From assembly GCA_017517745.1 (NCBI GenBank), contig JAFWYJ010000040.1, positions 18,453-82,452 on the forward strand: DNA of 64,000 nucleotides. Reading direction: 5' to 3'. Positions 1-19,860 of the stretch are shown in pieces. This DNA comes from Clostridia bacterium (lineage in GTDB: Bacteria; Bacillota; Clostridia; Oscillospirales; CAG-272). Every line of letters begins with the position of its first letter. Position 1 is the first letter of the stretch. A program made the position numbers and the translations under genes. The notes beneath the pieces were generated by a model that worked only from the letters and a program-made list of their open reading frames with translations, was not told the DNA's origin and did not search any database.

Positions 1-986
1 AATTCTGCGCGGCAACGGGATGTGACGCAGAAGCAATGAAGGACGATCCCGAATGTGCCGCTTGGTTCAGTGAGAAGATCGAGAAGGCAAAGATCGCGCT
101 GACACAGAAGCAATCCACCTCGCTGACTCCTTCCTTTGAGGGAAGCAAGGCTAAGGTTGAGATCACCAGAGAGAAGTTTGATGAGATCACCAGGGGTCTG
201 TTCGACCAGACCATTTATCTTGTTGACCAGATGCTCAATGACAAAGGCATGAACATCGTGACCGACATCGATGAGATCATCCTCGTGGGCGGTTCTACCA
301 GAATGCTCCAGATCGAGGAGGGACTCCAGCTCCACTATAACAAGCCCATTTCCAAGTTTGACCCCGACAAGGCGGTTTCCAACGGTGCGGCACTGGTTGC
401 AAGCGGTGCAAGCCTTGAGGAAAACCTGGATATGCCTCCCGTAATGCCCGCAGGCGGCGACGCTTTCGGCGGCTTTGACAGCCCCAGCCTCGGTGGCGGA
501 AGTACCTTCGAGGACAAGAGCGGAAACACCAACCAGATCGTTGAGGTTTGCACCAAGTCTTACTGCCTCAGATATTACAACGGCGGCAAGGAGACCTTCA
601 TCAACCTGGTCAAGAAGGATGAGCCCAAGCCCGCGATCGGAACGACCAAGACGATCATTCCCGGTCTGGTGCTTGGTGGCGGTGATTCCAACGGAATGAC
701 CAACGAAGTTGCTCTTCTGATCATGGAGAATGACAGCCGTGACGATCACGTGGAGCGCGAGAACTGCGTGGAGCTTTACGAAGAGGTTCCGATTATGCTT
801 GCAGAGCCCGTATCCGCGTCCTCTCAGGTTGAGATTCAGCTTTACGTCAACATCAGTGGCGAGTTGAAGCTGACCTTGATCGAGACTGCAACCGGCAGAC
901 AGTACGAGATGATCCCCGTTCGTAAGGGCGGCGATACCAACAGTATCGGTATGGATGCTGCAACCGGATTTACTTTGGTGGGCTAA
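1..986 (+). CDS. Non-canonical Hsp70/DnaK-family protein, C-terminal portion (5' end outside window)
   Basis: The frame is open back to base 1, so the ATG at 36 is internal. Hsp70 nucleotide-binding-domain motifs are present: IILVGGSTRMLQI and DPDKAVSNGAALVA. A Gly/Pro-rich linker follows, then a short beta-rich domain (VEIQLYVNISGELKLTLIETATGRQYEM) resembling the Hsp70 SBD-beta. There is no helical lid or EEVD tail. Confidence 0.8.
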   Translation, partial: FCAATGCDAEAMKDDPECAAWFSEKIEKAKIALTQKQSTSLTPSFEGSKAKVEITREKFDEITRGLFDQTIYLVDQMLNDKGMNIVTDIDEIILVGGSTRMLQIEEGLQLHYNKPISKFDPDKAVSNGAALVASGASLEENLDMPPVMPAGGDAFGGFDSPSLGGGSTFEDKSGNTNQIVEVCTKSYCLRYYNGGKETFINLVKKDEPKPAIGTTKTIIPGLVLGGGDSNGMTNEVALLIMENDSRDDHVERENCVELYEEVPIMLAEPVSASSQVEIQLYVNISGELKLTLIETATGRQYEMIPVRKGGDTNSIGMDAATGFTLVG

Positions 987-1005
987 GGTTAAGCGTTGAA
1001 CTTAC

Positions 1006-1041
1006 AGGAAAGCCCGATCAAGCAATTGATTAGGCTTTCCT
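1006..1041 (+). terminator. Intercistronic hairpin between the two Hsp70 genes (weak terminator, attenuator or processing site)
   Basis: AGGAAAGCC (1006-1014) pairs with GGCTTTCCT (1033-1041). An inner ATCAA/TTGAT pairing lies within the loop. The hairpin is followed by a TTTCACTATTTATT tract that is T-rich but interrupted. Confidence 0.3.
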
Positions 1042-1074
1042 TTCACTATTTATTAATAAGTTGAGGTGTTTTTC

Positions 1075-3192
1075 ATGGGAATCAGCGTTGGAATTGATTT
1101 GGGAACAACTTACTCGGCGGTTGCCACCTTTGACAAGGCAACGGGAACCGTCAAAATTCTGAAGAATGACATCGGCGAGGACTGCACGCCCTCGGTTGTC
1201 TGCATTGAGGACGGCGAGGTGACCATCGGTCAAGCGGCGAAGGATCTGCAGGCGGCGGGCAACGTCAACACTGCGGCGTTCTACAAGAGCATGATGGGCG
1301 AGCCGAACTTCAGCTGTTACATCGATGGGCAAAGCTTTTCCGCGGAGAATCTTTCCGCAGCGTTTCTGCGCGGCCTCAAACAGGCTGTCGAGGAGGCGAA
1401 CGGAGTCACGATCGACAGCGCGGTCATCACGGTTCCCGCCTATTTCAACGAGGCACAGCGCCAGGCAACCCTTCGTGCAGGAGAGGCGGCAGGCATGCGG
1501 GTTCTCAAGCTCATCAACGAGCCGACCTCGGCAATCATTGCCTACGGTCTGACGGGGCAGGGAGAGAAGAACGTCATGGTCTATGACCTTGGCGGCGGAA
1601 CCTTTGACGTCACCATTGCACACATCCGCGGCGCAAACGTGGACGTGCTTGCCACCAACGGCAACCATCAGCTCGGCGGCAAGGATTGGGATGCTGTGAT
1701 CGTGGAGGAGGTCGCTTCTCGTTTTTACGATCAATTCGGAGTCAACGTTCGTGACTACGAGGACGTCATGAACGAGCTGGCGGTCAAGTGCGAAAAGACC
1801 AAAAAGGTGCTCACCAACGTTCCCGTGACACAGATCAGCGTGCAATGCGAGGGCTTTTACGGAAAATACGACATCTCAAGAGAATTCTTTGAAGAAAGAA
1901 CCCAAACGCAGCTGGCGGAAACCACGCTGCTCATTCAAAAATGCTTTGATGAGATCTCTCGGCAGAGCGGCAAGTCCTTTGGCTGGACGTCGCTGGATGA
2001 GGTGGTTCTCGTCGGAGGCTCGACCAGAATGCCGCAGATCAGCAAAATGATTACAGAGGCCTTTGGTCGTCCTCCCATCATCATTGGCAACAAGGTGGAT
2101 ACCATCGTTGCCTCGGGTGCGGCAATGCAGGCAAGCATTTGCAACGAAGGCTCGATCACGCTCAGCGCGGCTTCGGGCTTTGTCAGAAACACCAATACCG
2201 CTCCCGGCGCTCCGGCTCCCACCCTCACGATCTGCGGCGATGCGATCAAGGACGTGACTTCTCACAGCCTTGGCATGCTTGCCTTTTTGGAAGAGAAGAG
2301 CCTGGATCTGATCAACAGTATCATCATCCCCAAAAACTCCGCGATCGGAGAAGCACAGGGCAGATGGTACAAATCACACGCGGATAAGATCTGCGTACAT
2401 GTTCTGCAGGGCGAGTCCGACAATCCTTACGATTGTACCTTCCTCTATTCCTTCACCATCACCGGCTTGAAGGCAGGGCAGGAGAATCGCGTGCAGGTCT
2501 TCTTCCTCTACAACCCCAGCGGTATGGTAGAGGTCAGTGCGCAAGATGAAATGGGAAGAGATCTCCCCGTCAAGAAGGAGCAGGGTGCAGGTCTTGCGCT
2601 TTCGGCAGGGCGCTCTCTGGATCAGATCATCGCAGAGGTTCGCCGCGAGAAGGAAGAGGCGATGCGCAGACCTCCTCTGGACGTCACGTTCGTTGTGGAT
2701 ACGTCGGGAAGTATGGAAGGTCGCCCCCTCGATGAGGCAAAAAAATCGATTCAAGAATTCTTGGCGCAGCTTGATCAAACCGATGCCAAGATCTCGATTC
2801 TTAAATTCTCCGATTCTTGCGATTGGAAGTGTTATCAAACAGAAATCAGCAAGCGTCCTTTTATTCAAAAGGCAATTCAATCTTTGGAGGTGGACGGCGG
2901 AACCACTGCTACACCGCTTGGAGATTTCGCCAAAAAGCAGGGATTCCATAAGATTGACGGAAAGATTCTCGTGGTCTTGACCGACGGTGAATGGGAACAT
3001 CAGGGATTTGAGATCATGTCGGCGCAATCCCTCAAGAAAAAGGGCGTGATCATTTACGCCGTTGGAATTGGCGATGCCGATTTCGATTTTCTCTCGAAGA
3101 TCGCCTCGAACGGCGGCGCGAAGAAGATCGATTTGAGCAGCTTGGCCGACACGTTCCGCGCGATCGCCTCCAGCATCGCAACACAATCTTAA
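1075..3192 (+). CDS. Hsp70-family ATPase fused to a C-terminal von Willebrand factor A (vWA) domain
   Basis: The ATG at 1075 sits 8 nt after TGAGG; the track start at 1066 is a GTG. Hsp70 motifs: GIDLGTTYS, DLGGGTFDV, VLVGGSTRMPQI. An SBD-beta-like segment follows (VHVLQGES...VQVFFLYNPSGMVEVSAQD). The C-terminal vWA has a full MIDAS: DTSGS (DxSxS), TATPLG, LVVLTDGEW. Confidence 0.85.
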   Translation: MGISVGIDLGTTYSAVATFDKATGTVKILKNDIGEDCTPSVVCIEDGEVTIGQAAKDLQAAGNVNTAAFYKSMMGEPNFSCYIDGQSFSAENLSAAFLRGLKQAVEEANGVTIDSAVITVPAYFNEAQRQATLRAGEAAGMRVLKLINEPTSAIIAYGLTGQGEKNVMVYDLGGGTFDVTIAHIRGANVDVLATNGNHQLGGKDWDAVIVEEVASRFYDQFGVNVRDYEDVMNELAVKCEKTKKVLTNVPVTQISVQCEGFYGKYDISREFFEERTQTQLAETTLLIQKCFDEISRQSGKSFGWTSLDEVVLVGGSTRMPQISKMITEAFGRPPIIIGNKVDTIVASGAAMQASICNEGSITLSAASGFVRNTNTAPGAPAPTLTICGDAIKDVTSHSLGMLAFLEEKSLDLINSIIIPKNSAIGEAQGRWYKSHADKICVHVLQGESDNPYDCTFLYSFTITGLKAGQENRVQVFFLYNPSGMVEVSAQDEMGRDLPVKKEQGAGLALSAGRSLDQIIAEVRREKEEAMRRPPLDVTFVVDTSGSMEGRPLDEAKKSIQEFLAQLDQTDAKISILKFSDSCDWKCYQTEISKRPFIQKAIQSLEVDGGTTATPLGDFAKKQGFHKIDGKILVVLTDGEWEHQGFEIMSAQSLKKKGVIIYAVGIGDADFDFLSKIASNGGAKKIDLSSLADTFRAIASSIATQS

Positions 3193-3204
3193 CGGGAGTT
3201 CACG

Positions 3205-6200
3205 ATGGCAAATAATATCAGAACACAAGAAGAATACAAAAAGCCGGAATATAACTATTTCATTGCCCTGAAGCTGGGCATCAAGGAAAAGAATACGGCA
3301 AACATCGAAAAAAGCATCAGCAAGACCTGCGGAAGCACCAAGGGAGACCTGATTTCCCGCCGTCTCATCGAGCTTCGACAGGACATGACCGAGATCATGG
3401 TCAACGATGCAACCTACAATCCGCAAACCAACAGCTACGTCCCCAATTCGGGAGGTCGCCAGAAGGAGGCGGATGCGGCAAAGGCACTCAAACTTGAGGA
3501 ATTGATGAAGCTCGTTTACAATATGTGTATGAGCAACGGACGTATTTTCAAGAGTACCCTCAACGAGCTTTGCATTGCCGCCAATAAAACGGCAGAATAT
3601 TTTACGCTTGACGAGCTGATCAAAAAATGCGATTCGCTCAAGGCGCAGGGAATCAAGTTCATCGACAACATGACCTCGGCAATTCCGTTCGCGGAGTTCC
3701 AGACGGCAGGTCAGTTGCTCGAAACCCCTCCCGCCAAGGCAGACCTTTACGAGTTTTTGGGCGTGAGTAAGACCGCGTCCGTTGCGGAGATCAGTGCCGC
3801 GAGAGCAAACGCGTATAACGAGGCGCAGAAAAAGAGCGACCTCAAGATCAAGCAGTCGGTTTCGGCTCTTTGCGCAAAGGTTGACGCCATTCTCACCAAG
3901 AGCCCCGATATCCGTAAGCAGTATGACTATTACATCCAGGTCAAGGAAACCGTATGGGATCAGTTCAAGATGAGAAAGACCTACGGTGCCAAGAGTATTT
4001 CGCTGGATGAATATTATCAGTTTGCGGAAGAGCTGCAGCGCGTGCTTTCCATCAAAATCGACGAGGTCGAGGAGATGCTGGGCGCGGGACTGAAGTTCTA
4101 CGGTCTGGTAGTCGCGGGTGACGAGGGTGACGGAAGTGCCAAGGAAAAATTGGGCATTCCCGAGCTGGAGCTTTGTCCCTATCCCGATTGCGGTCAGATC
4201 TATCGCGCGGGAGCCAAGGCATGCCCGCATTGCGGCAAGCCGCTTGAAATCCTTTGCTGGAACTGCGGCAATCAGGTGCCCTTTACCGTCAAGCACAAGA
4301 CTTGTAGCCATTGCGGCGCCGCGCATGACGGCAAGGATCGCTATGAAGCGGTTTCGCGCGAGATCGATGCGCTTTTGCGCGCGAGCGTGTGCGATATTCC
4401 GAAGCTGCAGGCTGCACTCATGACTTTGAAAAATCTCGTTCCCAACGATAAGGGGGATGGAAAATCCACCATTTCCAAGAAGGTGGCGCAATGCGAAAAA
4501 ACCATTGCGGATAAAATCAAAGAAGAGGAAACAACGGGCGAGAAGTACCGCGCCGACGAAAAGCTGGTGCAGGAACAGATCGCTCTGAAGAATCTGATGA
4601 CCGCGGCGAGCATGGTGAGCAATATGCGCCGTGCATATCCCACCTACAACGCGGCAAACACCCAAGCGCTCGCCAATTCGATTCAGGCGACGATCTCCAA
4701 GGCGCAGGCAGGACTTGAACAGGTCAAGCGTTATGCGGCGCAGGGGAATGAGGCCATGGTGATCGATTCCGCCTCCAAGGTGCTGGAGATCTGTGCCGAC
4801 TATCTTGAGGCGAAGCAGTTCCTCCAAAAGTTCCCGCCTAAGACGCCCTCTGCCCCCGTGATCTCTGCGTCGGATGACGGCAAGGTTCATCTGGAGTGGA
4901 GAAAAGAAGGGGATCAGAAGATGGTGACCTACACGATCGTCAAAAAGATCGGAACGGCACCGCAGAACGTCAAGGACGGCGCTCTGGTCGAGGAAAATCT
5001 CGAGATCAACTTCTATGAGGACAGCAACATTGTTTCCGCCACGCCCTATCACTACGCGGTATATGCTACCCGTTGCGGCGTGAATTCCGGATTGCTCGTG
5101 TTCCCGTCGTCCATTCAGGTGTTTGGAGACGTTGCCAACATCCAGCAGGAGATCCTGCCCGGCAAGATCAGCGTGCATTGGGATGCACCGCAGAATTTTG
5201 CAAGCATCGACGTCTGGAAGAAGGAGGGAACTATTGCTCCTCTCAAGGCGGGTGACGGCACCAAGCTTTCCGGCACGAAGGACGGCTTCGTAGACGAGGA
5301 TTGCAAGGGAGAAAACAGCTACCTCATCATTTGTACCTACAAGACCGCAGAGGGTGTGAAGTGCTCTCGCGGAATTACGCATACCTTTAAGAAATACGAC
5401 ATGATCGAGCCTCTGCGCGAGGTCAAGCTGACACAGAACACACAAACCGAGTTCTGTCTGTCCTGCAAGAATCCTTCGGACGAGAAGCTCCGTGTGGTGT
5501 TCAGCAAGAACAAGCTTCCTTGCCGCGCCGACACCGTTTTGCAGATGATGGATTACAACACCTATATCAAGGGTGGAACCACATTGCCGATCTTCTACGA
5601 TAATGACGGCGCGACCTGCTTCAATCTGCCTGCGAACGCGATGGGATACGTGTACGTGTTGGTTTACAACGATCAGCTCTTCTGCGCATCGGCTCCGATC
5701 GCCGCCAATGCGCTCGCCGGCATCACCAGCCTCTCCTATGAGGAGCAGAACGCGGGCGTGAAGATCAAGGGTAACCTGAATCCCGCAACCAAGCGCGTGA
5801 TCGCCAAGATCAGCGATACGGCTTTTGCAAAATCGATCAATGACAAGGGCGAGCAGATCGCCATCACCAAAGAACAGTTTGAGAGAGACGGCGGTTTTGT
5901 GCTCAAGCTCAAGACGAATGCTTCGCACTATATTTCGGTGTTTGCCGAATTGGATCTGGAGGGACATGTCACCACGTCCTACGGCACGCCGTTGGAGAAT
6001 GTGATCGACCTGCGCGAAAAGGTTACCGTGCAGTATTGCATGGAATTCACCGTGTCGCAATCCAAGCCTTTCAAGATGACGCTGAAATTTGCGGCGGATC
6101 AGCCCGTGGATCTTCCCGACATGCTGTTGATGAAAGGCGTACCGCGGCCTCTGAACAAGAGCGCCGGAACGCTGGTGGAGCGCGTGAGCGGTGTGGCACT

Positions 6201-6342
6201 GAAAAAAGGCCTCTTCTCCTCGCGTTATACGGCAAAGATCACCCTGACCGTCCCTGCAGACAGACCGAACATGAGGTTCATTCTGTTTACGGCTGACGAT
6301 CACGTCAAACATGCCAAGCTCAAAGAGGTTACGTCTCTGTAA
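3205..6342 (+). CDS. 1045-aa multidomain protein: degenerate J-like domain (no HPD), double zinc ribbon, coiled coil, FN3-like beta domains
   Basis: Residues ~178-243 (DLYEFLGVSKTASVAEISAARANAYNEAQKKSDLK...ILTKSPDIRKQYDYY) follow the J-domain helix I-IV pattern, but the HPD position reads KKS. The zinc ribbons are CPYPDC..CPHC and CWNC..CSHC (nt ~4174-4317). FN3-like signatures are PSAPVISASDDGKVHLEW...YHYAVYA and ISVHWDAP...YLIICTY. The gap to the upstream gene is 12 nt. Confidence 0.75.
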   Translation: MANNIRTQEEYKKPEYNYFIALKLGIKEKNTANIEKSISKTCGSTKGDLISRRLIELRQDMTEIMVNDATYNPQTNSYVPNSGGRQKEADAAKALKLEELMKLVYNMCMSNGRIFKSTLNELCIAANKTAEYFTLDELIKKCDSLKAQGIKFIDNMTSAIPFAEFQTAGQLLETPPAKADLYEFLGVSKTASVAEISAARANAYNEAQKKSDLKIKQSVSALCAKVDAILTKSPDIRKQYDYYIQVKETVWDQFKMRKTYGAKSISLDEYYQFAEELQRVLSIKIDEVEEMLGAGLKFYGLVVAGDEGDGSAKEKLGIPELELCPYPDCGQIYRAGAKACPHCGKPLEILCWNCGNQVPFTVKHKTCSHCGAAHDGKDRYEAVSREIDALLRASVCDIPKLQAALMTLKNLVPNDKGDGKSTISKKVAQCEKTIADKIKEEETTGEKYRADEKLVQEQIALKNLMTAASMVSNMRRAYPTYNAANTQALANSIQATISKAQAGLEQVKRYAAQGNEAMVIDSASKVLEICADYLEAKQFLQKFPPKTPSAPVISASDDGKVHLEWRKEGDQKMVTYTIVKKIGTAPQNVKDGALVEENLEINFYEDSNIVSATPYHYAVYATRCGVNSGLLVFPSSIQVFGDVANIQQEILPGKISVHWDAPQNFASIDVWKKEGTIAPLKAGDGTKLSGTKDGFVDEDCKGENSYLIICTYKTAEGVKCSRGITHTFKKYDMIEPLREVKLTQNTQTEFCLSCKNPSDEKLRVVFSKNKLPCRADTVLQMMDYNTYIKGGTTLPIFYDNDGATCFNLPANAMGYVYVLVYNDQLFCASAPIAANALAGITSLSYEEQNAGVKIKGNLNPATKRVIAKISDTAFAKSINDKGEQIAITKEQFERDGGFVLKLKTNASHYISVFAELDLEGHVTTSYGTPLENVIDLREKVTVQYCMEFTVSQSKPFKMTLKFAADQPVDLPDMLLMKGVPRPLNKSAGTLVERVSGVALKKGLFSSRYTAKITLTVPADRPNMRFILFTADDHVKHAKLKEVTSL

Positions 6343-6354
6343 TCTCAACAAACG

Positions 6355-6415
6355 CTCCGCCGCGCCCGCAGAGCGGGGCGGCGGAGGAATACCGATGAAA
6401 GGATGGAGAACATGA
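6355..6415 (+). promoter_or_regulatory. GC-rich hairpin overlapping a GGAGG, plus a 6-codon mini-ORF whose stop overlaps an in-frame ATG of the next gene
   Basis: CTCCGCCGCGCCCGC (6355-6369) pairs with GCGGGGCGGCGGAG (6373-6386) with one bulge, and no U-tract follows. GGAGG (6383-6387) lies 7 nt upstream of the ATG at 6395. That ATG opens MKGWRT-stop, and its TGA (6413-6415) overlaps the ATG at 6412-6414, which is in frame with the 6403 ORF. Confidence 0.3.
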
Positions 6416-7749: not shown

Positions 7750-7751
7750 TT

Positions 7752-8966: not shown

Positions 8967-8980
8967 AAGGGAGGGTTCTC

Positions 8981-10456: not shown

Positions 10457-10516
10457 GCCCCCCTGAGTCAATCGAAAATCCAAATCAAGCAAATCATATA
10501 GAAAGAGGAAAAAACC

Positions 10517-11623: not shown

Positions 11624-11630
11624 TTCATTG

Positions 11631-14318
11631 ATGAAAGCGGCTCAGTATATGTACACGTCTTGGAAAAATGCCCCCAATCACGGATTCAGTCTCTATTCGA
11701 TGACGCCGGGACTCTCCGCGACCGACAGCGAGGACATTTCCAAAATGATGAAGTACGTTTTGCAGCCCGGAATGCCGCGTGATCCTTCCGATGAGGAAAT
11801 CGCGTCTGTTCTGCCGCGAAACGTCGCGTTCTTCCCACTTTCCTCGGGTAGGTACTGCCTCGCACAGGCGGGCTACGTGGGACGTGAATACCGAGGCTTT
11901 GAGGACGGCGGCCGTCTTGGAAACTATCTTTTACACGCCTATATTTTGGACGATGTGAAGGACGTTCTTCCCATGTCTTTCGTGGGAGACGACATTTTCC
12001 GCTACGACCTGACGAAGGAGGAGTGGCAGGCAACCAATCCCGCGCCGCTTCCCATTGTGGAGCTTGCTCCCGTCGGAAAGATGCTGACCCAAAGCGAGAT
12101 CGCGTCGTTCTTCGATGCAACTCGCATCGAAACGCTGGAAAAGCTGGTTCAGGCGATCATCACTGCATCGGCAAACGGAAAAACCGTCTTTTTCAATGAC
12201 GAGAATGCAAACATGCGCTTTTGGTACAAGGCTTTGGCGGTCTGTCTGCCGGTCAGCCTTTCGAAAACGGCGTTCAACACGTACTCGCTTTCGATGAGCC
12301 TGCCTGTCGGTGTTTCTCCTTGCTGCAAGCTCAGCCTCATGAACGTTTCGGTCAGCAAGGATCCCGCCATTCCGATCACCGCGCCCAACCTCGCGGACGA
12401 GACGCGAAAGGGCAACTTTGTCATCGACTTGGTGCGTGGAGCTTATAGCCCCGTTACGGTCGGTTCTTATGCCAAGGCTGTTTGCGCGAAATTCAAGGCG
12501 AATCTCTTTGACGCGGTCAATTTCGCGAAGAAGATCGACGTTACGGCGGCAAGATATTCCTGCACCGTCGATCAGGCGATGGATATCCTCTGCTTCTCCG
12601 AGGGCAAGCTGGATCAGTTCCCGAGCATTGGTGACGTGCTGAGGGTGATCCGTCTGCTTGGCGACGGCACGCCGGATGCACAGATGCAGAACAGCATCAC
12701 CCGATTTGCCGAGCGCATTCTGACGGGCGCATATCCTTACGGAAATGAGCTTTGCGAGGCAATCAAAAACGTGGTTTATCCCAACGTTGCCGATGATTGG
12801 AAGCAGAAGTTGCTCGCTTACGTGATGCAGACCGCACTCTCCATGAATGCACCGAGCAAGGCAGCGTTCGCAAAGGCGGTCGATTCCGCGATCCCGTGCG
12901 ATAAATTGACGGCGGCACGTTATATTTACGATAACAAGATCTATGACCGCTTGTTGGGCGGAGATCTTTATCAGATTCACTATCTGGCAACCATGACTGT
13001 CGAGAATTATACCGCGCTGCAGACGGTATATGGCAAGCTTCCCACCATGATGCTGAATACGGTGGTGTCCAAGTACATCGGACAGAACGATTTCGCTTCG
13101 TTGGATGAGCTGGTAGCGCTCGCTCCCGGACTCACGGGCAGTGCGATCGCAGTGGTGATCTGTCACTATGCAGAGAAGAAGACGCTCGGTCAGATCTCGG
13201 TGGATGCCTTCTTCCGTGTCCTTCCCAAGGCAACGCTTTCGAGCGATGCTCTGGTCACTCTCATGACCGAGGCAATCGCGCTGTGGGGAAGGGATGCCGA
13301 TTTCTGCCGAAAGTACGAGGCGTTTGCTGCGACGAATGCGCAGGCGGATGCCGCACTCCGCGCAATTCCCGCGTGTGTGCCGTTCTTTGACGAGATGGAG
13401 GTGCATCGCTTCCGCTCGAGCCGCCCGACGATGGACGGACTTTGCAATTACTTCATGCGGATCTATGCCAAGAATCCCGATGACACGGCGTTCGAAGCAA
13501 AGCTGACCGAATATTTGAAGCCTTTGGATTGGAAGACTTGTCTGCGTGAATCGATCACGGTTTACTCCAGATGCTTCAAGCCGAAAAAAGGCTGGACTCC
13601 GAACGATTTGCGCATCGTGCAAGTCTTGCGCTGGAATGTGTTGGAAAAACCGGAGCGCCGTGAGTTTTCCAAGGCGCTTCTGTCGGAAGTAAATCTCCGC
13701 ACGATGGTGGACGGATTCGTGAAGGATACCGAGATGAGAGGTTGCGGCAAAGATGCCTTCTATGCGATGATCTCCGCCTTTGCCGAGATCATTGCCAAGC
13801 CTGCACTCCAGGCAGTGAAGGCCATCGAGACACAAACGCTTCTCGCGGGACTTCTGGTCTCCAAGGAAACGGCGGCAATCTTCAATCAAAACCTTGCCGA
13901 GGAGTATCTCATCTACGTCACAGAGGCAATCAAGGCGTCCCGAAAAGAGGATCATCCCTTGTTGACAACGGCACTCCTTCCTCTGACAGCCGATGAGCCT
14001 TCCTTCAAAAAGGCGATCGCCGCGATTCTTTCTTCCAACGAAAAGGATGCGCAGAAGCGCAGTTTGCGACTGCGGGCAGTATTGCTTCTGCACGTTTCCA
14101 CCGATGCCAAGCCGCACAAGGCGCTCAAGGCAGTATTTGAGGATGACTTCCTCAATTGCTCCAAGAAGGAACGCTTGAACGTGCACAAGGCGACGGCAAA
14201 GGCGACACAAGACAAAGATCTGTTTGCAAAGAGTCTGGAATATGTGACAGACTTCAATGCAAAGCACAAAACCGGTTTCTTTGACAAGCTGAAGGGCTTG
14301 TTTGGAAATAAAAAATAA
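11631..14318 (+). CDS. 895-aa mostly helical protein of unknown function; candidate GTPase-associated (GAP1-like) scaffold
   Basis: The ATG at 11631 follows the GTPase stop by 7 nt. The N-terminal pattern QYMYTSW...HGFSLYSMTPGLS and GRLGNYLLHAYIL recalls, from memory, the N-terminal module of GTPase-associated protein 1 families. This functional label is tentative and was not verified by any search. Confidence 0.6.
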   Translation: MKAAQYMYTSWKNAPNHGFSLYSMTPGLSATDSEDISKMMKYVLQPGMPRDPSDEEIASVLPRNVAFFPLSSGRYCLAQAGYVGREYRGFEDGGRLGNYLLHAYILDDVKDVLPMSFVGDDIFRYDLTKEEWQATNPAPLPIVELAPVGKMLTQSEIASFFDATRIETLEKLVQAIITASANGKTVFFNDENANMRFWYKALAVCLPVSLSKTAFNTYSLSMSLPVGVSPCCKLSLMNVSVSKDPAIPITAPNLADETRKGNFVIDLVRGAYSPVTVGSYAKAVCAKFKANLFDAVNFAKKIDVTAARYSCTVDQAMDILCFSEGKLDQFPSIGDVLRVIRLLGDGTPDAQMQNSITRFAERILTGAYPYGNELCEAIKNVVYPNVADDWKQKLLAYVMQTALSMNAPSKAAFAKAVDSAIPCDKLTAARYIYDNKIYDRLLGGDLYQIHYLATMTVENYTALQTVYGKLPTMMLNTVVSKYIGQNDFASLDELVALAPGLTGSAIAVVICHYAEKKTLGQISVDAFFRVLPKATLSSDALVTLMTEAIALWGRDADFCRKYEAFAATNAQADAALRAIPACVPFFDEMEVHRFRSSRPTMDGLCNYFMRIYAKNPDDTAFEAKLTEYLKPLDWKTCLRESITVYSRCFKPKKGWTPNDLRIVQVLRWNVLEKPERREFSKALLSEVNLRTMVDGFVKDTEMRGCGKDAFYAMISAFAEIIAKPALQAVKAIETQTLLAGLLVSKETAAIFNQNLAEEYLIYVTEAIKASRKEDHPLLTTALLPLTADEPSFKKAIAAILSSNEKDAQKRSLRLRAVLLLHVSTDAKPHKALKAVFEDDFLNCSKKERLNVHKATAKATQDKDLFAKSLEYVTDFNAKHKTGFFDKLKGLFGNKK

Positions 14319-14339
14319 AATAAAGAAAGAGGTAGTATC

Positions 14340-14528
14340 ATGGAAATCATTGGACACATTTTAATGATTATTCTTTACATTTGTTACCTACTGTTCATGA
14401 CCTTGTTGCTCATCGCGATCGCAGCGATCACAACGGCAGTCGGTGTGGGTATGGGACTTGTAAAGGGAATCAACCACGCGCTCGAAATTTATTTCGGAAC
14501 ATTAATTGAAGAGATTGGAGATAGATGA
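14340..14528 (+). CDS. 62-aa small membrane protein
   Basis: RBS is AGAAAGAGG. One or two hydrophobic helices are present (ILMIILYICYLLFMTLLLIAIAAITTAVGVGMGL). It lies in operon context. Confidence 0.55.
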   Translation: MEIIGHILMIILYICYLLFMTLLLIAIAAITTAVGVGMGLVKGINHALEIYFGTLIEEIGDR

Positions 14529-14532
14529 CGCT

Positions 14533-16023
14533 ATGAGAAAACAACCGGCAAAAGTAAATTATTTCTTCGGCGGTGCGTATCGCACTCTGATCAAAACCAT
14601 TTTGGGGTCTTTTGCGAAGACCTTCGGACTTATCACCGTTCTTGCACCTTTACCCTTCAAAGCATTTTTCCTGTTTATCAAAGCATTCGTAGCACTTGTC
14701 GTTTCGATTTTCAGTCTGGATTTCCGCGACATTTGGGACAATACCAAGGATACCGTGTTTGCTCTCTGGAGCTTTACTTACACGCTCCCCACGTTCCTCA
14801 GCGTTTTGATCCTCACCCCCACCATGTGCTTGATCCTCAGCGCAATTCAGCTGGTGATCTTCCTTGGTTTGATGTTCACCATCTACGTGGTCTACACCAT
14901 CACCTATCTGCTCGACCTGCTCTTCCGTAAGATCAAGCAGATCTCCAACACCTGCCGCTACTGCCAGCGCAAGATCAAGAATCCCATTTATTTCTGCCCG
15001 AACTGCGGAGTTGAGCACGATATGCTCATTCCTTCCAAGTACGGTGTGTTCAAGCGCAGATGTGAGTGCGGTGCAAAGCTTGGCACCACCTTCCTGAGCG
15101 GACGTGAGAAGCTTGAAAGTAAGTGTCCTTACTGTGAGAGCGGTATCGCGGATACGTCGCACGTGGATATCACCGTTCCCGTTGTGGGCGGTCCCAGCGC
15201 AGGTAAGACCTGCTTCATTCATATGGCAATTTCTGATATTGAGCAGAATTCCATGACCGATCACAAGCTGGAATATGAATATGATCCCGGCATTGATGAT
15301 GAGTTCGCAATGAACATGAGCAACCTCAAGCAGGGCTTGGCACCGAATAAGACCAGTGACATGCGTCTGCGTTTCTACAGCTTCTATCTCAAGCCCAAGA
15401 AGGGAATCAAGCATCTGATTTCGCTTTGTGACGTCGGAGGAGAGATCTACGACGACAGTGAATCTCTCGGTACGCAGGCTGCTCTGACACACTCCAATGC
15501 ATTCCTTATGGTCATCGACCCGCTGTCCATGATGGATTACCGCAAGGAGCTGGAGCAAAACGGTGTCGACATTTCCAAGTTCGGACCCAGCTCCAAGCCG
15601 ATTGACGAGGTGCTCAGCTTGCTGATTACCACGCTCGAGAATATGTGTAACATCTCCGCAAAGGATATGCTCAACCGTGATTTGGCGGTTGTATTCTCCA
15701 AGGGAGACCTTCCCGGTCTGGAGGAAAAGATCGGCAAGACTGCAGTAGAGGAGTACATGACCTCTCATGCAGGCACCACCCGTCTGCAGGCGCAGAATGC
15801 GGTTTGCGAACAGTTCCTCAAGGAATATGATGAATTCGGCTTCCTCAATGCCGTGAAGTCCAAGTTCAAGGTGGTGCAGTTCTTTGCAAGCAGCGCACTT
15901 GGACACGCCGCTGACGGAAGTGCCTTTGAATCCAATGGCGTATCCGAGCCCGTCTACTGGATCGTCGATAAGATCAGCGCAAGCATCGATCTGACCGAGG
16001 TTTGGGACGAAAAGCGCGGATAA
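14533..16023 (+). CDS. Membrane-anchored zinc-ribbon TRAFAC GTPase, paralogous in architecture to 10517-11623
   Basis: The ATG at 14533 is 4 nt after the upstream stop; the track start at 14506 is a TTG. The N-terminus has ~4 TM helices. Zinc ribbons are CRYC..CPNC and CECG..CPYC. G1 is GGPSAGKT, G3 is LCDVGGE, and G4 is FSKGD. Confidence 0.8.
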   Translation: MRKQPAKVNYFFGGAYRTLIKTILGSFAKTFGLITVLAPLPFKAFFLFIKAFVALVVSIFSLDFRDIWDNTKDTVFALWSFTYTLPTFLSVLILTPTMCLILSAIQLVIFLGLMFTIYVVYTITYLLDLLFRKIKQISNTCRYCQRKIKNPIYFCPNCGVEHDMLIPSKYGVFKRRCECGAKLGTTFLSGREKLESKCPYCESGIADTSHVDITVPVVGGPSAGKTCFIHMAISDIEQNSMTDHKLEYEYDPGIDDEFAMNMSNLKQGLAPNKTSDMRLRFYSFYLKPKKGIKHLISLCDVGGEIYDDSESLGTQAALTHSNAFLMVIDPLSMMDYRKELEQNGVDISKFGPSSKPIDEVLSLLITTLENMCNISAKDMLNRDLAVVFSKGDLPGLEEKIGKTAVEEYMTSHAGTTRLQAQNAVCEQFLKEYDEFGFLNAVKSKFKVVQFFASSALGHAADGSAFESNGVSEPVYWIVDKISASIDLTEVWDEKRG

Positions 16024-16032: not shown

Positions 16033-17109
16033 ATGCTACAAAAGGAATATTGGCGCACAAAGCTTTCCCCGGCGGATCAGAAGACCTATGATCTGATTCG
16101 CGCGGGGCTGGCATCCCAGCGGGAGCGAACCGCCATTCCGACCTTTTCGGGAGATCCGAACGGCATTTTGCCGATCTATCAGGCGATCTGGAACGATCAC
16201 CCCGAACTCTATTGGCAGACCTATGCACCGGGCGTTGCGCAAGCGGCATCTTCGTTTGGCGGATTGTTTGGCTCGGGGGGCGCACCTCGGTTTGAGGTCA
16301 TCCATCCGACGCTTTATCAACCCAAGGAAACGGCAAGCATCAACGCGTCCATTCGGAACGTGCTTGCGAAGTTGGATGCGTTGAAGGCACAGCCAAAGAT
16401 CGATCAGATCATCGCCGCGATTCTGCATCTTGCAAAGCACGTAACCTACGAGATCAACAACGAAAAGAACCAGAATGCGGCGTCAGCCCTCTACTTCGGA
16501 CGTGCGCAATGCACGGGATATGCCAAGGCGTTCAAGCTGATGATGGATCATCTCGGCATCCCCTGCATATTGGTTTCGGGATCGGCAATGGCAAGAGAGG
16601 GGGATCCCTCCTCCATGGGACCGCATGCGTGGAATCTTGTTGAGCTGGACGGTGCTTGCTATCACCTGGACACCACCGCGGTGGCAGGAAACGTCGATGA
16701 CCGCGAGGATATTTTGGCAAGTCTGCTGTTTCTCGGAAAGGATGGGGATTTTGAGAAAAACCATGTGTGGGATCGCAAATCGATTCCCGCATGTCCCAAT
16801 CATTCTCCCTACCGTGCGACAAAGATCATTCCCTCACCGGGCGCAGGGATGCCCTCCAAGCCCGATGATGCAAGCGTTACGCAGATCTCCTCGCTTTACG
16901 AATTGCGGATGCTTTTGGCACGCGAGTTTGCAAGCGAGAAAACTTGCACGTTTGCTTTTCGCATGAACATGAGTCTGCCGACCGAAAAACTTCATCCTCA
17001 TGTGATGAGCAGCATTCAGGCAGCGCTCAATCAAGCAAAAAAATCATCGAGCGTAGAGACGACTTGTCAGGGAACGCTCTATCAGCTGACGAGAACCGTG
17101 AGCCCGTAA
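16033..17109 (+). CDS. Transglutaminase-like cysteine peptidase superfamily protein
   Basis: A Cys-His-Asp arrangement is present: RAQCTGYAKAFKLMMDHLGIP, then GPHAWNLVELDGACYHLDTT. This is typical of the transglutaminase core. Confidence 0.75.
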   Translation: MLQKEYWRTKLSPADQKTYDLIRAGLASQRERTAIPTFSGDPNGILPIYQAIWNDHPELYWQTYAPGVAQAASSFGGLFGSGGAPRFEVIHPTLYQPKETASINASIRNVLAKLDALKAQPKIDQIIAAILHLAKHVTYEINNEKNQNAASALYFGRAQCTGYAKAFKLMMDHLGIPCILVSGSAMAREGDPSSMGPHAWNLVELDGACYHLDTTAVAGNVDDREDILASLLFLGKDGDFEKNHVWDRKSIPACPNHSPYRATKIIPSPGAGMPSKPDDASVTQISSLYELRMLLAREFASEKTCTFAFRMNMSLPTEKLHPHVMSSIQAALNQAKKSSSVETTCQGTLYQLTRTVSP

Positions 17110-17141: not shown

Positions 17142-17414
17142 ATGGCAAAAGGAACAAATCGTGTTGTGGCAGGGGATTACCGCGGAGCAGAGGTGATCTG
17201 GAACGGAGCAGAGCTTCTAATCTCGGGATTGATGTTCACCGCCTGCAAGATAGACAAGACCACGGTCGCCCATCACACCCTGGTGGGACAGACGAGCGGT
17301 CTGTTCGGAACGAACGTCGGATACAACGTTTCGGTGGATTTCACCAACGGCAAAAGATCCATGCTTTCGCTCGACCAACAATATTATGATCTTTTGATCA
17401 GAATTTTATTTTAA
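17142..17414 (+). CDS. 90-aa small beta-rich protein, unknown function
   Basis: RBS is TGGAGAT. It lies in operon context and has no recognisable motif. Confidence 0.5.
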   Translation: MAKGTNRVVAGDYRGAEVIWNGAELLISGLMFTACKIDKTTVAHHTLVGQTSGLFGTNVGYNVSVDFTNGKRSMLSLDQQYYDLLIRILF

Positions 17415-17429: not shown

Positions 17430-18341
17430 ATGTTTTATTACGGACCCCCTCCGCGGCAGGATAGAGACGGAGGCTGTTTCGCCTTCTTGGCGATATTCAT
17501 CATCATTGCCATCATCGCAGCTGTGATCGGCTGGTACATCCTTCTCTTCTTCCTCGGACTTGGCTTGGCGGTTGGTTGCGTGTTCTCATTGATCATTTAT
17601 ATTCGTGCACTCGTTTCCGCCATTCAAGAGCTTGCCGCCGCGCCGCCGCATGCATCCAACAAACTGTTGACGGTACTCAAGGGCTACGGAATCCTGCTTC
17701 TGAAGGTGCTGGCAAACAGTTTCCGCGAGACCATGACCGTGGTGTCAAACAGCTTTACAAAGTTTCTGAATCACCGTGTGCTTTCCTTCCAGAAATGGAT
17801 GTGGCTGACCGTGGTCCTCACGGTTTCGGTGTGTGAGGTGCTTTTCCTGATTGCCGCGATCATGTTCCAGTTTGTGCTCGTGAGCGCGATCCTGATGCTG
17901 ATCTTCTATCTCATTGTTGCGGTGTTGCTCATCAATCTGATCGCGGCACTTGGCTATACGACTGTGTTGGCGGTTGCAGATCTGATCAGGAATATCGGTG
18001 TCAATCAGCGAATGGATCACATGACCTTTTCTTCGCTCTCCACGTTTTCCGCATGGCTGCAAGCCCCCGGACTTCTTTGGAAGAGTGAAAAATCCTTTTT
18101 CCGCACGGTGATCGCAGATACGGCTCTGCGCGCGCGCACGTTTTTGGCATATTCGGGCGCACATCGCCTGGTTTCGGTGCAGAAGTGGTTTGACCTCACT
18201 TGTGCCATCGCGATCTGGGTGGTTGCCGCCGTCTTCAGTCTTGTATTCACGCTTTGTTATCTGATCGCATTCTTGGCAGTTTGGATCGCAAACCTTTTCT
18301 GGACGACGGGCGTTGTGTTGTTTTACCGTCTGCATCCTTGA
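17430..18341 (+). CDS. Polytopic membrane protein (303 aa), unknown function
   Basis: RBS is AAGGAAAGGG. Six or more long hydrophobic segments are visible. Confidence 0.65.
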   Translation: MFYYGPPPRQDRDGGCFAFLAIFIIIAIIAAVIGWYILLFFLGLGLAVGCVFSLIIYIRALVSAIQELAAAPPHASNKLLTVLKGYGILLLKVLANSFRETMTVVSNSFTKFLNHRVLSFQKWMWLTVVLTVSVCEVLFLIAAIMFQFVLVSAILMLIFYLIVAVLLINLIAALGYTTVLAVADLIRNIGVNQRMDHMTFSSLSTFSAWLQAPGLLWKSEKSFFRTVIADTALRARTFLAYSGAHRLVSVQKWFDLTCAIAIWVVAAVFSLVFTLCYLIAFLAVWIANLFWTTGVVLFYRLHP

Positions 18342-18356: not shown

Positions 18357-19298
18357 ATGAATCTGTTTTTGATTGCAGGCAACGGCTGTGACGGGAACGG
18401 GATGGCGGAGATTCGACGAATCTCACGGTTGCTTCCGATTCTGGAGAGCGGTGTGCCTTGCATTCTCACGGGCTATCAACCCGATCAGCTGGCACTGGCG
18501 ACCGAGGCACAGAACGTTCTCAAGGACGCCCGTGTGCGACCGACACATCTTTGCACGGTGTCCGAAGCGGACACGTTTTCCAAACTCTGCCTGCAGGCCG
18601 AGTTGCTTTTGGAACGAGTTCGCCGCGGAACCCTATCAGACCGTGGAACGCTGTTGATTTTGGCGCCTGCCGACATGATCCGTGCAATTCTGCAAGCCGC
18701 GTTTTATATGAGACCGGATGAGGCGATCGCGCTTTCTGTGCCAAAAAGCGGGACACGTTGGATCGCGTTGAAGGGCGAACACTTCTTCGATCTCGGCGCA
18801 CTTGCCGATGCCGAGGTGGATTTCACCGAGGACGAGCCGAATCCGAACGAAGATCTTCCTTCGGGTGGCTTTTGCGGTGTGATCGGCACGGACGATGCAC
18901 AAGAGAAGCAAGAAGAGCCGCAGCACAAGTATATTCCAACATATTTCAAAACCCATTGTTACCGAGAAGACGCCGTGACGTTTGTGAAGACCGTCAATCA
19001 AGTCATCAAAACCGTTCAAAACGTGATCGAAAAACGCGTCGAATGGGGATACGGCATGCAACGTCCTCCGGATTTTGCGCGAAACAACGAATTGAGAATG
19101 CTTCGCACATTGATGGAGGGAGCAGTCGCCTTTGCTTGTGCGAAGGCACTCATGAAAGAGGGCGTGCAGATGGGGCAGGTTTCTCCCGAGCGGGAAATGC
19201 CCGTGCTTGAGGAGGAAAACAACTACGGCATCGATCTTGAACCAAGCCGAGAACAAAACGGCAGAAACCATGGAAATGAAATGCAAAATTCAAAATAA
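18357..19298 (+). CDS. 313-aa protein; the N-terminal half resembles a histidine-phosphatase (PGM-like) fold with catalytic residues replaced
   Basis: RBS is GGAGGCGACGGAG. LFLIAGNG sits where LIRHGE/Q would be, and LLILAPADMIRAIL sits where VSHGG-IR would be. The similarity was judged by eye only. Confidence 0.5.
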   Translation: MNLFLIAGNGCDGNGMAEIRRISRLLPILESGVPCILTGYQPDQLALATEAQNVLKDARVRPTHLCTVSEADTFSKLCLQAELLLERVRRGTLSDRGTLLILAPADMIRAILQAAFYMRPDEAIALSVPKSGTRWIALKGEHFFDLGALADAEVDFTEDEPNPNEDLPSGGFCGVIGTDDAQEKQEEPQHKYIPTYFKTHCYREDAVTFVKTVNQVIKTVQNVIEKRVEWGYGMQRPPDFARNNELRMLRTLMEGAVAFACAKALMKEGVQMGQVSPEREMPVLEEENNYGIDLEPSREQNGRNHGNEMQNSK

Positions 19299-19316
19299 GT
19301 AAGAAAGAGGCATATT

Positions 19317-19796
19317 ATGAGCAATAATAACGATATCATTACATTAACAAGTGCCGACGGTACCAGCACGGATTTTTATAACCTCGGCGTCATCCGTCAC
19401 AAGGGCACTTCCTTTGCGATTCTTCAGCCTGTGGATCTTCCTGCGGGAATGACGGCAGACGAAGCACTGGTGTTCCGTATGACCTTCAAGGCGGGCGGCG
19501 ACATTGATTATAATATTGAGGTTAACGACAAGATCGTGGACGCCGTTTTGAAGAAGTTCAACAATCTGGTGGATCAGAGCAACAATGACGCCGGAAGAGC
19601 GGTCGGACATCCCCTCAACATGCTGCTTGACGTCGGAGTCTTCATCGTGCTGGTGATCATGACCCTCGTTGTGCAGGATTTCTTGCCCACGGATGGATTG
19701 CGGAGCATCTTGCTCACGACAATTTTGGCGGGAATGGTTGCAGACGTCGGATACTTCATCGTGCATCTGTTCTGCTTCCTGATTGGAAAGCGTTGA
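19317..19796 (+). CDS. DUF1292-like N-terminal domain fused to a C-terminal membrane segment
   Basis: ITLTSADGTSTDFYNLGVIRHKGTSFAILQPVD follows the DUF1292/UPF0473 pattern. The C-terminal 60 aa are hydrophobic. Confidence 0.55.
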   Translation: MSNNNDIITLTSADGTSTDFYNLGVIRHKGTSFAILQPVDLPAGMTADEALVFRMTFKAGGDIDYNIEVNDKIVDAVLKKFNNLVDQSNNDAGRAVGHPLNMLLDVGVFIVLVIMTLVVQDFLPTDGLRSILLTTILAGMVADVGYFIVHLFCFLIGKR

Positions 19797-19820
19797 AAGA
19801 GAACGTCAAATCGAAAAGCA

Positions 19821-19860
19821 AAAGGCATTCCCAAACGCGGGAATGCCTTTGCTGTTTTTA
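19821..19860. terminator. Intrinsic terminator closing the long operon (between convergent genes)
   Basis: AAAGGCATTCCC (19821-19832) pairs with GGGAATGCCTTT (19839-19850). It is followed by GCTGTTTTT. Confidence 0.75.

Follow-up and report, generated by a model that had tools for sequence, protein, structure and literature searches.

A coupling-protein-like ATPase module in a Clostridia operon that very probably belongs to the GAP1-N2-type DO-GTPase systems

What is a run of genes that sets two Hsp70s beside a conjugation-type ATPase pair, two zinc-ribbon GTPases, a GTPase-associated giant, a peptidase and several membrane proteins, and does it belong to any system already described? The question is raised by a 64,000-nucleotide stretch of contig JAFWYJ010000040.1 (assembly GCA_017517745.1) from a Clostridia bacterium of the lineage Oscillospirales, CAG-272; this whole stretch is called the window below, and the genes in question fill its first 20 kb. 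Our analysis indicates that the locus is, with high probability, a single 18-gene operon of about 21.6 kb, namely a GAP1-N2-type DO-GTPase system (GAP1, GTPase-associated protein 1) with an HSP70/GrpE theme, extended by a coupling-protein-like ATPase module.

Extent, composition and class of the operon

Firstly, we delimited the operon. Between positions 3 and 19796 the window contains 16 open reading frames (ORFs), all on the + strand and separated by intergenic gaps of about 2–88 nt, and the block is closed by a hairpin at 19821–19850; this agrees with the initial annotation, made from the letters of the window, which had described one co-directional block ending at a terminator and starting outside the window. 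ORF1 is cut by the window start, since its frame runs on to base 1 without a start. A 111-kb metagenomic scaffold, L001, carries ORF2 in identical form (an exact-protein look-up with the ATG start at 1075 found exact copies on 6 contigs), and there two genes stand before it: a GrpE-like gene, followed by the complete gene for Hsp70a, whose 5′ half lies outside the window. Judged by this scaffold, about 1.8 kb of the operon lie 5′ of the window. Still 5′ of grpE, the terminator of yebC (16–17 bp stem) is followed by a promoter-like site with an extended −10 element (TTGACA-17-TG-TAATAT), about 44 nt before the grpE start codon. The terminator and the promoter-like site thus delimit a unit of 18 genes and about 21.6 kb. 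The earlier statement that the block lacks grpE was an artefact of the window edge, since a GrpE-domain gene passing the Pfam threshold is the first gene of the operon and lies just outside. The genes of the core and the closing terminator are as follows (aa, amino acids).

L001 7143–8177, outside the window: GrpE-like gene, 344 aa, first of the operon (Pfam GrpE 31.2 bits, cut-off 25.8)
1–986, + strand: Hsp70a, C-terminal 327 aa of 557 (Pfam HSP70 1e-21)
1075–3192, + strand: Hsp70-vWA fusion (ORF2), 705 aa (Pfam HSP70 1e-95, VWA 1e-21)
3205–6342, + strand: giant protein (ORF3), 1045 aa (Pfam DZR, double zinc ribbon, 2.4e-6)
10517–11623, + strand: DO-GTPase 1 (ORF8, GTPase1), 368 aa (Pfam DO-GTPase2 28.6 bits, cut-off 27)
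11628–14318, + strand: GAP1 (ORF9), 895 aa (Pfam GAP1-N2 3e-17, 63.3 bits, cut-off 24)
14506–16023, + strand: DO-GTPase 2 (ORF11, GTPase2), 496–505 aa, likely start ATG 14533 (Pfam DO-GTPase2 7e-12, 45.9 bits, cut-off 27)
19821–19850, both strands: bidirectional intrinsic terminator that closes the operon (12–13 bp stem with 6 GC pairs, T-run on each strand)

Nearly all the domains called initially were recovered by Pfam (HSP70, VWA, DZR, coupling-protein, DO-GTPase2, GAP1-N2, Transglut_core and DUF1292). In the first protein, the GrpE domain forms the C-terminal half and is preceded by a 185-aa N-terminal extension. The window encodes Hsp70a from the second half of its nucleotide-binding domain onwards; a linker rich in Gly and Pro leads to a beta-rich C-terminal domain, and there is no helical lid. 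In the Hsp70-vWA fusion, the nucleotide-binding domain of Hsp70 type is followed by a linker and beta-subdomain like those of DnaK (DVTSHSLGM, VLQGE) and then, at the position of the lid, by a vWA domain with a complete metal-ion-dependent adhesion site (MIDAS, DTSGSM), the D/S/S residues of which are invariant in 14/14 relatives. These two proteins are paralogs (36% identity) that both retain the canonical phosphate-binding motifs (DLGTTYS, DLGGGTFD); read directly against DnaK, both keep the beta-subdomain and leave no room for a helical lid. The giant consists of a helical N-terminus, a J-like domain at about 180–245, a double zinc ribbon at 327–371 and a helical middle region, followed by a C-terminal half (about 500 aa) that by motif reading looks beta-rich and FN3-like, FN3-like W/Y motifs being visible by eye. 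A profile of its 14 members matches J domains in the PDB (E=1.5e-5, positions 160–226), and the HPD motif is absent in 14/14, as had been noted for the window, where NEAQKK aligns to YHPDRN of E. coli DnaJ; because the motif is missing, any stimulation of an Hsp70 by this domain would be non-canonical. Residues 540–760, compared as a profile with the PDB, give weak matches of FN3 type (3mpc, E=0.02; the ephrin receptor EphA4, E=0.09; 5g56, E=0.9). This set shares with the DnaK–DnaJ–GrpE cycle the Hsp70 phosphate-binding motifs, the DnaK-like linker and beta-subdomain, a GrpE domain and a J-fold domain, but departs from it in its lidless Hsp70s, one of them carrying a vWA domain instead, in the missing HPD, in the extension of GrpE and in Hsp70 NCBIfam scores that fall far under the DnaK and HscA equivalog cut-offs.

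GTPase1 carries two N-terminal Cys4 zinc ribbons and a TRAFAC-type domain with G1 GAKASGKS, G3 DTAGE (including a Walker-B glutamate) and G4 TKLD, the motifs (in G3 the D, G and E, in G4 the K and D) being invariant in 16/16 sequences; its relatives are 50–82% identical. GTPase2 begins with about four transmembrane helices (residues 39–136), followed by two zinc ribbons and a GTPase domain (GGPSAGKT, DVGGE, SKGD), in which G/G/K/T of G1, D/G/E of G3 and K/D of G4 are invariant among 17 sequences and the first G4 position varies (T/S/V/A); no C-terminal transmembrane helix was found. Cys4 clusters are readable in ORF8 and ORF11, and the Pfam zinc-ribbon matches of ORF11 are weak. The two GTPases are paralogs (21% identity, E=4e-7). 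The initial annotation saw several components as an active protein with a divergent or inactive paralog. Paralogous pairs do exist (Hsp70s 36%, charged proteins 43%, GTPases 21% identity), and the idea holds for the ATPase and its partner described below, but not for the Hsp70s or the GTPases, both members of which keep their catalytic motifs.

The GAP1 gene lies about 5–8 nt behind ORF8, according to whether TTG 11628 or ATG 11631 is taken as its start codon. In the protein, a conserved N2 domain and a small M domain of alpha/beta type precede an alpha-solenoid of about 600 aa that diverges fast; invariant columns are concentrated in residues 1–240. The match to GAP1-M is weak in the window protein (19 bits, below the cut-off of 24) and is recorded for the relatives P0002–P0006, while Pfam gave no GAP1-C match in the window GAP1. 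An AlphaFold model (pLDDT 72.5) shows a helical repeat over 280–880, for which the structural matches are generic solenoids (TM-score about 0.1), so that no function is deduced from them. The GAP1 of locus L007 (P0002) has, at about 900–1006, a polar C-terminal extension of about 110 aa, 43–83% charged, which the window GAP1 does not have; it recalls the charged proteins ORF6 and ORF7 listed below and the ‘highly polar C-terminal extension’ that Kaur et al. (PMC7159879) mention for other GAP1 proteins.

Secondly, we asked where this gene set belongs. GAP1-N2-type DO-GTPase (‘GTPase-centric’) systems were predicted computationally by Kaur, Burroughs, Iyer and Aravind (eLife 2020, PMC7159879), whose section 29 describes them and whose Table 1 counts 904 organisms for the N2 type and 262 for the N1 type. 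As set out in that section, they comprise a DO-GTPase with two N-terminal zinc ribbons, a second GTPase with four N-terminal transmembrane helices, GAP1 located 3′ of a GTPase, a rapidly evolving FNIII-repeat protein and many transmembrane components. In an HSP70/GrpE theme, found in about 14% of neighbourhoods, in actinobacteria and firmicutes, HSP70 and GrpE are joined at times by a second Hsp70, and the repeat protein is fused to a DnaJ domain or to TPR (PMC7159879). The GrpE, the two Hsp70s, the J-like zinc-ribbon giant, the zinc-ribbon GTPase, GAP1-N2 and the four-helix GTPase of our locus match this theme, and therefore the locus can be placed: its core is a GAP1-N2-type system of the HSP70/GrpE theme and belongs to a described, purely computational class. 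The initial annotation had recognized the resemblance to the NTP (nucleoside triphosphate)-dependent systems of Kaur et al. (PMC7159879), and this resemblance is confirmed; its further remark that it could place the exact combination in no described system goes too far, given the theme of section 29.

The likeness to the theme, as far as section 29 describes it, extends to two DO-GTPases with the Walker-B glutamate, one with two zinc ribbons and the other with about four N-terminal transmembrane helices, to GAP1-N2 directly after a GTPase, to HSP70, GrpE and a second Hsp70, to a Firmicutes host, to a large protein combining a DnaJ-type domain with a beta-rich region and to several transmembrane components. 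The window differs in carrying a coupling-protein-like ATPase, its inactive paralog and one or more polyampholyte proteins, of which the text of the paper makes no mention in these systems; in an Hsp70 fused to vWA and a J-like domain without HPD (14/14); in a GTPase2 without a C-terminal transmembrane helix and FN3 repeats not detectable by Pfam; and in a tail with a transglutaminase-like peptidase, a rare 313-aa protein and a DUF1292 protein with two transmembrane helices. New here are the operon boundaries, the coupling-protein-like active/inactive pair as a dedicated module, and the absence of HPD from the J-like domain in all 14 members.

Thirdly, we compared the locus with its relatives. 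Loci with L-numbers are related loci from genomes and metagenomes that were found through relatives of GAP1 and of the ATPase and annotated with the window proteins. The block is conserved elsewhere, in the same gene order in at least 18 other loci, with a host GC content of 0.27–0.59; the refuting condition named in the initial annotation, a gene set without synteny in any second genome, thereby falls away. Two classes can be told apart. Class I, from five rabbit-gut Clostridia metagenome-assembled genomes (MAGs) and one Anaeroplasma MAG, has no ATPase module and reads GrpE, Hsp70, Hsp70-vWA, giant, GTPase1, GAP1, (small transmembrane protein), transmembrane GTPase2, peptidase, the 90-aa protein p90 and a transmembrane protein. 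Class II (the window, L099, L100, L101, L020, L016, L025 and others) keeps this order but interposes, between the giant and GTPase1, the ATPase with its partner and usually also a charged protein. The whole tail, from GAP1 to DUF1292, is common to L007 and the window. The upstream neighbours vary between loci (yebC, gidA, radical SAM). When 185,579 species representatives were scanned for two peptide patterns from the N-terminus of GAP1, 6 loci came up, none of them from the window’s species; as the scan rests on two patterns, the family is under-sampled by it and the count gives no estimate of prevalence. One ATPase cluster is indexed in 199 blocks of the collection searched.

The proteins of the operon diverge at very different rates. 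Between the window and L099, identity is 81% for the ATPase, the highest of the operon proteins, 77% for GTPase1, 70% for Hsp70a, 66% for the giant, 63% for transmembrane GTPase2, 41% for GAP1 and 37% for the peptidase. Against the closer L101 (ATPase 95% identical, dS 0.6–0.9), dN/dS is 0.03–0.12 for GrpE, both Hsp70s, the giant, the ATPase, its partner, charged protein B and GTPase1. The conserved synteny, the invariant catalytic residues and these dN/dS values together show that the genes are functional and the operon a working machine. In a separate observation, further copies of components stand beside related operons (L007 8954–13070; L010 13145–16318; L011 15619–19275; L026), including a second transmembrane GTPase with an 899-aa protein (weak or faint Pfam matches to PEGA and PPC), tandem transmembrane GTPases and an additional giant of about 1200 aa; in related loci, components appear commonly to be duplicated on the spot and to diversify.

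An active/inactive coupling-protein-like pair as a dedicated module

Between the giant and GTPase1, the window carries four genes that the Class I operons do not have.

6403–7749, + strand: ATPase (ORF4), 445–448 aa, soluble and type-IV-coupling-protein-like (Pfam TrwB_AAD_bind 1e-41, T4SS-DNA_transf, TraG-D_C)
7752–8966, + strand: ATPase partner (ORF5), 404 aa, directly after the ATPase gene (identified with AlphaFold2 and Foldseek)
8981–9688, + strand: charged protein A (ORF6), 235 aa, 46% D/E/K/R, paralog of ORF7 (43% identity)
9746–10456, + strand: charged protein B (ORF7), 236 aa, 48% D/E/K/R, conserved member of the ATPase module

ORF4 aligns to positions 11–327 of the 387 of the TrwB_AAD_bind profile. 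Its Walker A (GGIGSGKT) and Walker B (VVDEF) are intact, and Walker A together with D, E and F of Walker B is invariant in 14/14 relatives; the best 120 database relatives are 64–100% identical. ORF5 was modelled with AlphaFold2 from a 44-sequence alignment (pLDDT 84.8, pTM 0.81), and the top Foldseek matches of the model are TrwB (1e9s, E=6e-11, TM-score about 0.55 over about 410 columns), Cag-beta, DndH-C, HerA and VirB4. In the window copy, GNSPRGIES replaces GxxxxGK[ST] and VAVNE replaces hhhhDE, so that both the P-loop lysine and the Walker B aspartate are lost. Across the family the P-loop site reads G-N-S-x-x-G-x-E, with GK[S/T] in 0/44 sequences, a lysine in 12/44 and the Walker B aspartate in 27/44. 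The lost motifs, taken with the predicted TrwB fold, confirm what had been proposed from the window, that ORF5 is a ‘dead-Walker’ partner with degenerate nucleotide-binding motifs. The kinship of ORF4 and ORF5 is visible through structure prediction only: the two families showed no signal in a profile–profile comparison, and the partner profile found nothing among PDB sequences. It is a reasonable inference from the model that the two proteins would form a mixed active/inactive ring.

The pair was followed through about 19 loci with an ATPase at least 65% identical, 11 from the metagenome scan and 8 from exact-protein look-ups (L001, L014–L017, L099–L101). In all of them the partner lies directly 3′ of the ATPase (65–95% identical; hosts of 31–57% GC), and wherever the contig allows the pair lies within a GTPase/GAP1/Hsp70 operon, between the giant (or the Hsp70 block) and GTPase1. 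The active/inactive coupling-protein-like pair, usually with a highly charged protein, is hence shown to be a dedicated module of GAP1-type operons. Orthologues of ORF7 (236–250 aa) occupy the same position in L101 (81% identity), L099 (46%), and L100 and L020 (26% each). These four loci have one charged gene (10927–11637 in L101), whereas the window has two in tandem; ORF6, for which Pfam, NCBIfam and PADLOC gave no match, is an extra copy, so far seen in this lineage only, and marks a recent gain or loss in an otherwise strongly constrained operon.

Coupling-protein families call conjugation to mind, and the locus could be read as a remnant or variant of a conjugative or type IV secretion element, of a type VII secretion system or of a sporulation apparatus, a reading to which we give next to no probability. 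It draws on the matches of ORF4 to the TrwB, TraD and VirD4 families, 4375 of the plasmids with a match being conjugative. With the coupling proteins TrwB of R388, VirD4/Cag-beta and TraD, ORF4 shares the Pfam families, including that of the all-alpha domain, and Walker A and B, and the model of ORF5 superposes on TrwB and Cag-beta. Yet plasmid coupling proteins are at most 34% identical to ORF4, neither ORF4 nor ORF5 contains a hydrophobic or transmembrane segment, so that the N-terminal membrane anchor is missing, and the NCBIfam scores of ORF4 (89 and 80 bits) lie far below the equivalog cut-offs (521 and 250). No relaxase, VirB4, VirB6/8, pilin, EssC, WXG100 or integrase is present in the 18 genes or in the relatives, which extends the earlier remark that structural genes for conjugation or secretion are missing from the block; nor are there any for sporulation in the 18 genes. 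The active/inactive pairing is a further difference from the conjugative proteins. The best plasmid-borne relative of the ATPase (34%), on a Paenibacillus plasmid, has no GAP1 or Hsp70 context and was dropped. ORF4 has the fold, and probably the ring motor, in common with the coupling proteins, without being a protein of conjugation.

In the 60 nt that separate the giant from the ATPase gene there is, at 6355–6386, a GC-rich perfect 9-bp stem (CTCCGCCGC...GCGGCGGAG) without a T-run. It stands where the module begins on the 5′ side and could serve in RNA processing or stability, or be an insertion scar.

A second alternative takes the locus for two systems in one operon, with 6403–10456 (ATPase, partner and charged proteins) as an independent inserted cassette, for example a HerA/DndH-like DNA sensor, and the remaining genes as an ordinary GAP1-N2/Hsp70 system. 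In six related operons precisely these genes are missing and the rest is collinear, the cassette is flanked by two larger gaps (about 60 nt) with the GC-rich hairpin at its 5′ edge, and ORF4 has remote matches to the defence-associated mad8, HerA and DndH models. The pair has, however, never been seen outside the GTPase/GAP1/Hsp70 operon in the ~19 loci and keeps a constant position there; no promoter-like or terminator-like site belongs to the cassette itself; and no protein of the operon is better conserved than the ATPase, which speaks for tight integration. We thus consider an independent cassette improbable. As for the defence modules built on NTPase rings (MoxR-vWA ternary systems, HerA-effector, DndH, mad8), the analogy lies in a ring NTPase combined with a vWA or adaptor protein and variable outputs, together with the remote PADLOC matches of ORF4 (mad8, 1e-14) and the matches of the ORF5 model to DndH-C and HerA. 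The window differs from them in having no MoxR, Sir2, nuclease or DNA-modification gene, and the matches are at the superfamily level only.

A sister clade of the ATPase (47–56% identity) accounts for 69 of 80 metagenome loci (L029–L097) and has a different conserved neighbourhood, in which a zinc-ribbon protein of about 363 aa adjoins the ATPase in nearly all loci of at least 9 kb. At least four of these loci (e.g. L079 5874–21233, L066, L075, L083) also encode a Tubulin_2 protein of 1250 aa, a vWA protein whose N-terminus bears a hydrophobic segment, and two larger zinc-ribbon proteins. Within ±10 kb no DO-GTPase or GAP1 was detectable in the sister-clade loci, and the partner, Hsp70 and giant genes are absent too; this neighbourhood may be the firmicute ‘tubulin theme’ of Kaur et al.

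Tail genes and flanks

The small gene between GAP1 and GTPase2, and the genes from GTPase2 to the terminator, are the following.

14340–14528, + strand: hydrophobic membrane protein (ORF10), 62 aa (hydrophobic residues 1–44)
16033–17109, + strand: transglutaminase-like cysteine peptidase (ORF12), cytoplasmic, 358 aa (Pfam Transglut_core 1.3e-10)
17142–17414, + strand: 90-aa protein conserved in the tail module (p90, ORF13; homologues at the same position in L007, L099, L005, L009 and L010)
17430–18341, + strand: polytopic membrane protein (ORF14), 303 aa, about 6–8 transmembrane helices (hydrophobic blocks 11–66, 122–186 and 253–293)
18357–19298, + strand: rare-family protein (ORF15), 313 aa (syntenic homologue in L007)
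19317–19796, + strand: DUF1292 protein with two transmembrane helices (ORF16), 159 aa (Pfam DUF1292 6e-5; helices in 95–151)

ORF10 has homologues at the same position in L007 (46%) and L099 (49%), and ORFs of 55–60 aa lie there in L005 and L007. The Cys160-His198-Asp213 triad of ORF12 is intact and invariant in 8/8 sequences, despite an overall identity of 25–37%. ORF13 matched no family in Pfam and PADLOC searches, homologues of ORF14 occur in L007, L099, L005, L009, L010, L011 and L014, and DUF1292 genes are linked to the system also in L007, L013 and L014. For ORF15, the initial annotation had suggested an apparently inactivated enzyme domain. No enzyme-like domain, active or inactive, is detectable: at E<=1 Pfam returned nothing besides noise, a 7-sequence profile found no PDB match, and the family counts 5 relatives at E<=1e-3 among 1.84 billion representative proteins, so that an inactivated histidine phosphatase or other enzyme finds no support. 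Its members all start with MNxFL and end, nearly without variation, in QNSK (SK invariant), which suggests recognition motifs at the two ends.

The terminator at 19821–19850 is common to the operon and to a convergent cytidylate-kinase-like gene (19874–20524, − strand). Beyond it Pfam identifies, within the window, a PBP5-type (D-Ala-D-Ala) carboxypeptidase, pgi, a topoisomerase and RF3, and the genes farther upstream of grpE on L001 are argS, recN, argR and nadK. The stretch 19874–64000 is ordinary chromosome, with an aldo-keto reductase and an ABC/FtsX transporter (Pfam) and, read by eye, a rhamnose-isomerase-like protein, an XRE-type regulator and a PlsY-like protein; GC content drops to 0.43 at 28–30 kb. 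The window contains zero tRNA genes, zero Rfam matches and no integrase, and the base composition of the operon is like that of its host. Long antisense ORFs (2374–7542, 8918–11371 and 11931–14357, all − strand) were dismissed as shadow ORFs, because the + strand genes there have homologues.

What the operon might do

The function that we favour, at close to an even chance and in line with Kaur et al. (PMC7159879), is a threshold-gated response to an invader or to envelope damage that would end in growth arrest or abortive infection. The four-helix GTPase2, the soluble zinc-ribbon GTPase1 and the GAP1 scaffold would make up a membrane-anchored switch, the N2 and M domains of GAP1 holding the GTPases and its fast-evolving solenoid holding variable partners. 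A dedicated chaperone cycle would be run by the GrpE-like exchange factor, the two lidless Hsp70s, one of which ends in a metal-dependent vWA domain that may bind a ligand, and the giant with its HPD-less J-like domain, whose beta-rich C-terminal half may serve as a recognition or adaptor surface. The soluble ring of active and inactive TrwB-fold subunits could act with the polyampholyte protein as an ATP-driven translocase or assembly platform, and the output would come from the tail, with its presumably active transglutaminase-like cysteine peptidase and several membrane proteins. Switch, chaperone cycle and ring would jointly set an NTP-dependent threshold; once it is crossed, NTP-driven remodelling would license the peptidase and membrane effectors, leading to growth arrest or abortive infection.

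Several observations are consistent with such a role in conflict. The rates are very uneven (with L099, ATPase 81% and GTPase1 77% against GAP1 41% and peptidase 37%), close relatives differ in gene content (the charged genes number one or two, and GTPases or a giant may be added) and chromosomal flanks differ among relatives, one of which is labelled Chitinispirillales by its source; SUKH immunity-type genes and a GH-E toxin fragment adjoin two relatives. A constant part combined with a variable one is a conflict signature in the terms of Kaur et al. (PMC7159879), which is not proof.

Other results weigh against an immune function and against parts of the scheme. In the literature searched there is no experimental work on any GAP1/DO-GTPase system. 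Among the 18 proteins searched with PADLOC-DB 2.0 (2023), ORF4 has remote matches only (mad8, HerA, DndH) and 15 have none; weak matches were Csx3 for GTPase2 (E=2.5e-4) and PDC-M61B for Hsp70a (E=0.009). The flanks are housekeeping on both sides, with no restriction, CRISPR, Abi, integrase or tRNA gene nearby, and no canonical defence gene was present in the flanks of seven contexts. No relatives of the ATPase were found on IMG/VR viral contigs, and no classical toxin domain (nuclease, NADase or known pore-former family) in the operon. The NTPases are unusually conserved for a defence system (ATPase 65–95%). In the giant, windowed dN/dS against L101 revealed no elevated stretch (omega 0.03–0.11) and thus no diversifying selection, and the FN3 repeats expected for this class show up weakly at best, Pfam fn3 matching none of the 14 giants.

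The same facts lend themselves to a constitutive, non-immune machine of the cell, that is, a membrane-associated assembly, trafficking or export apparatus. Here the ring would act as translocase for a polypeptide or nucleic acid, substrates would be remodelled or held unfolded by the Hsp70/GrpE/J-like set, and the GTPases with GAP1 would place or time the process, for example in envelope or surface biogenesis, cell–cell structures or division-related remodelling. High conservation of the NTPases across hosts (ATPase 65–95%, GTPase1 50–82%), strong purifying selection on all nine genes testable, housekeeping flanks with host-like composition, the absence of a recognisable toxin and of a convincing PADLOC match, and abundance in gut metagenomes (the 199 blocks of the one ATPase cluster) would all suit it; in addition, Kaur et al. 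(PMC7159879) remark on a likeness of these systems to the regulated assembly of cytoskeleton-like complexes. On the other hand, the distribution looks patchy (6 loci among 185,579 species representatives, with the under-sampling of the two GAP1 patterns), chromosomal positions vary between relatives, the content is modular, with the ATPase module present or absent and GTPases or the giant duplicated, GAP1, the peptidase and the tail proteins diverge very fast, and the operon contains no signal-peptide cargo or envelope-structure genes. A constitutive machine of this kind is, in our judgement, rather unlikely, and the threshold-gated response stays the reading that we prefer.

A bolder proposal, which we put forward as doubtful, is that the soluble TrwB-fold heteromeric ring, far from being an accessory, may be the working motor of a new membrane-proximal nanomachine, loaded or gated by the chaperone cycle and by a dimerising GTPase switch on the GAP1 scaffold. 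The ring would thread or extract a macromolecule, for example incoming DNA or the polyampholyte protein; if true, this would be a mechanism without characterised precedent in immunity or secretion.

The locus provides a fully delimited example from a gut Clostridia bacterium, with a promoter-like site, 18 genes and a terminator. All catalytic residues that can be checked are intact, providing a ready list of positions for point mutants, and a strongly conserved, soluble coupling-protein-like ATPase pair is now tied to GAP1 systems. Should the system prove to be immune, defence would here, as rarely elsewhere, employ dedicated Hsp70 chaperones and a conjugation-type motor; otherwise gut Firmicutes would commonly possess a large cellular machine so far uncharacterised. 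Either way, a class that has been purely computational gains a concrete experimental target.

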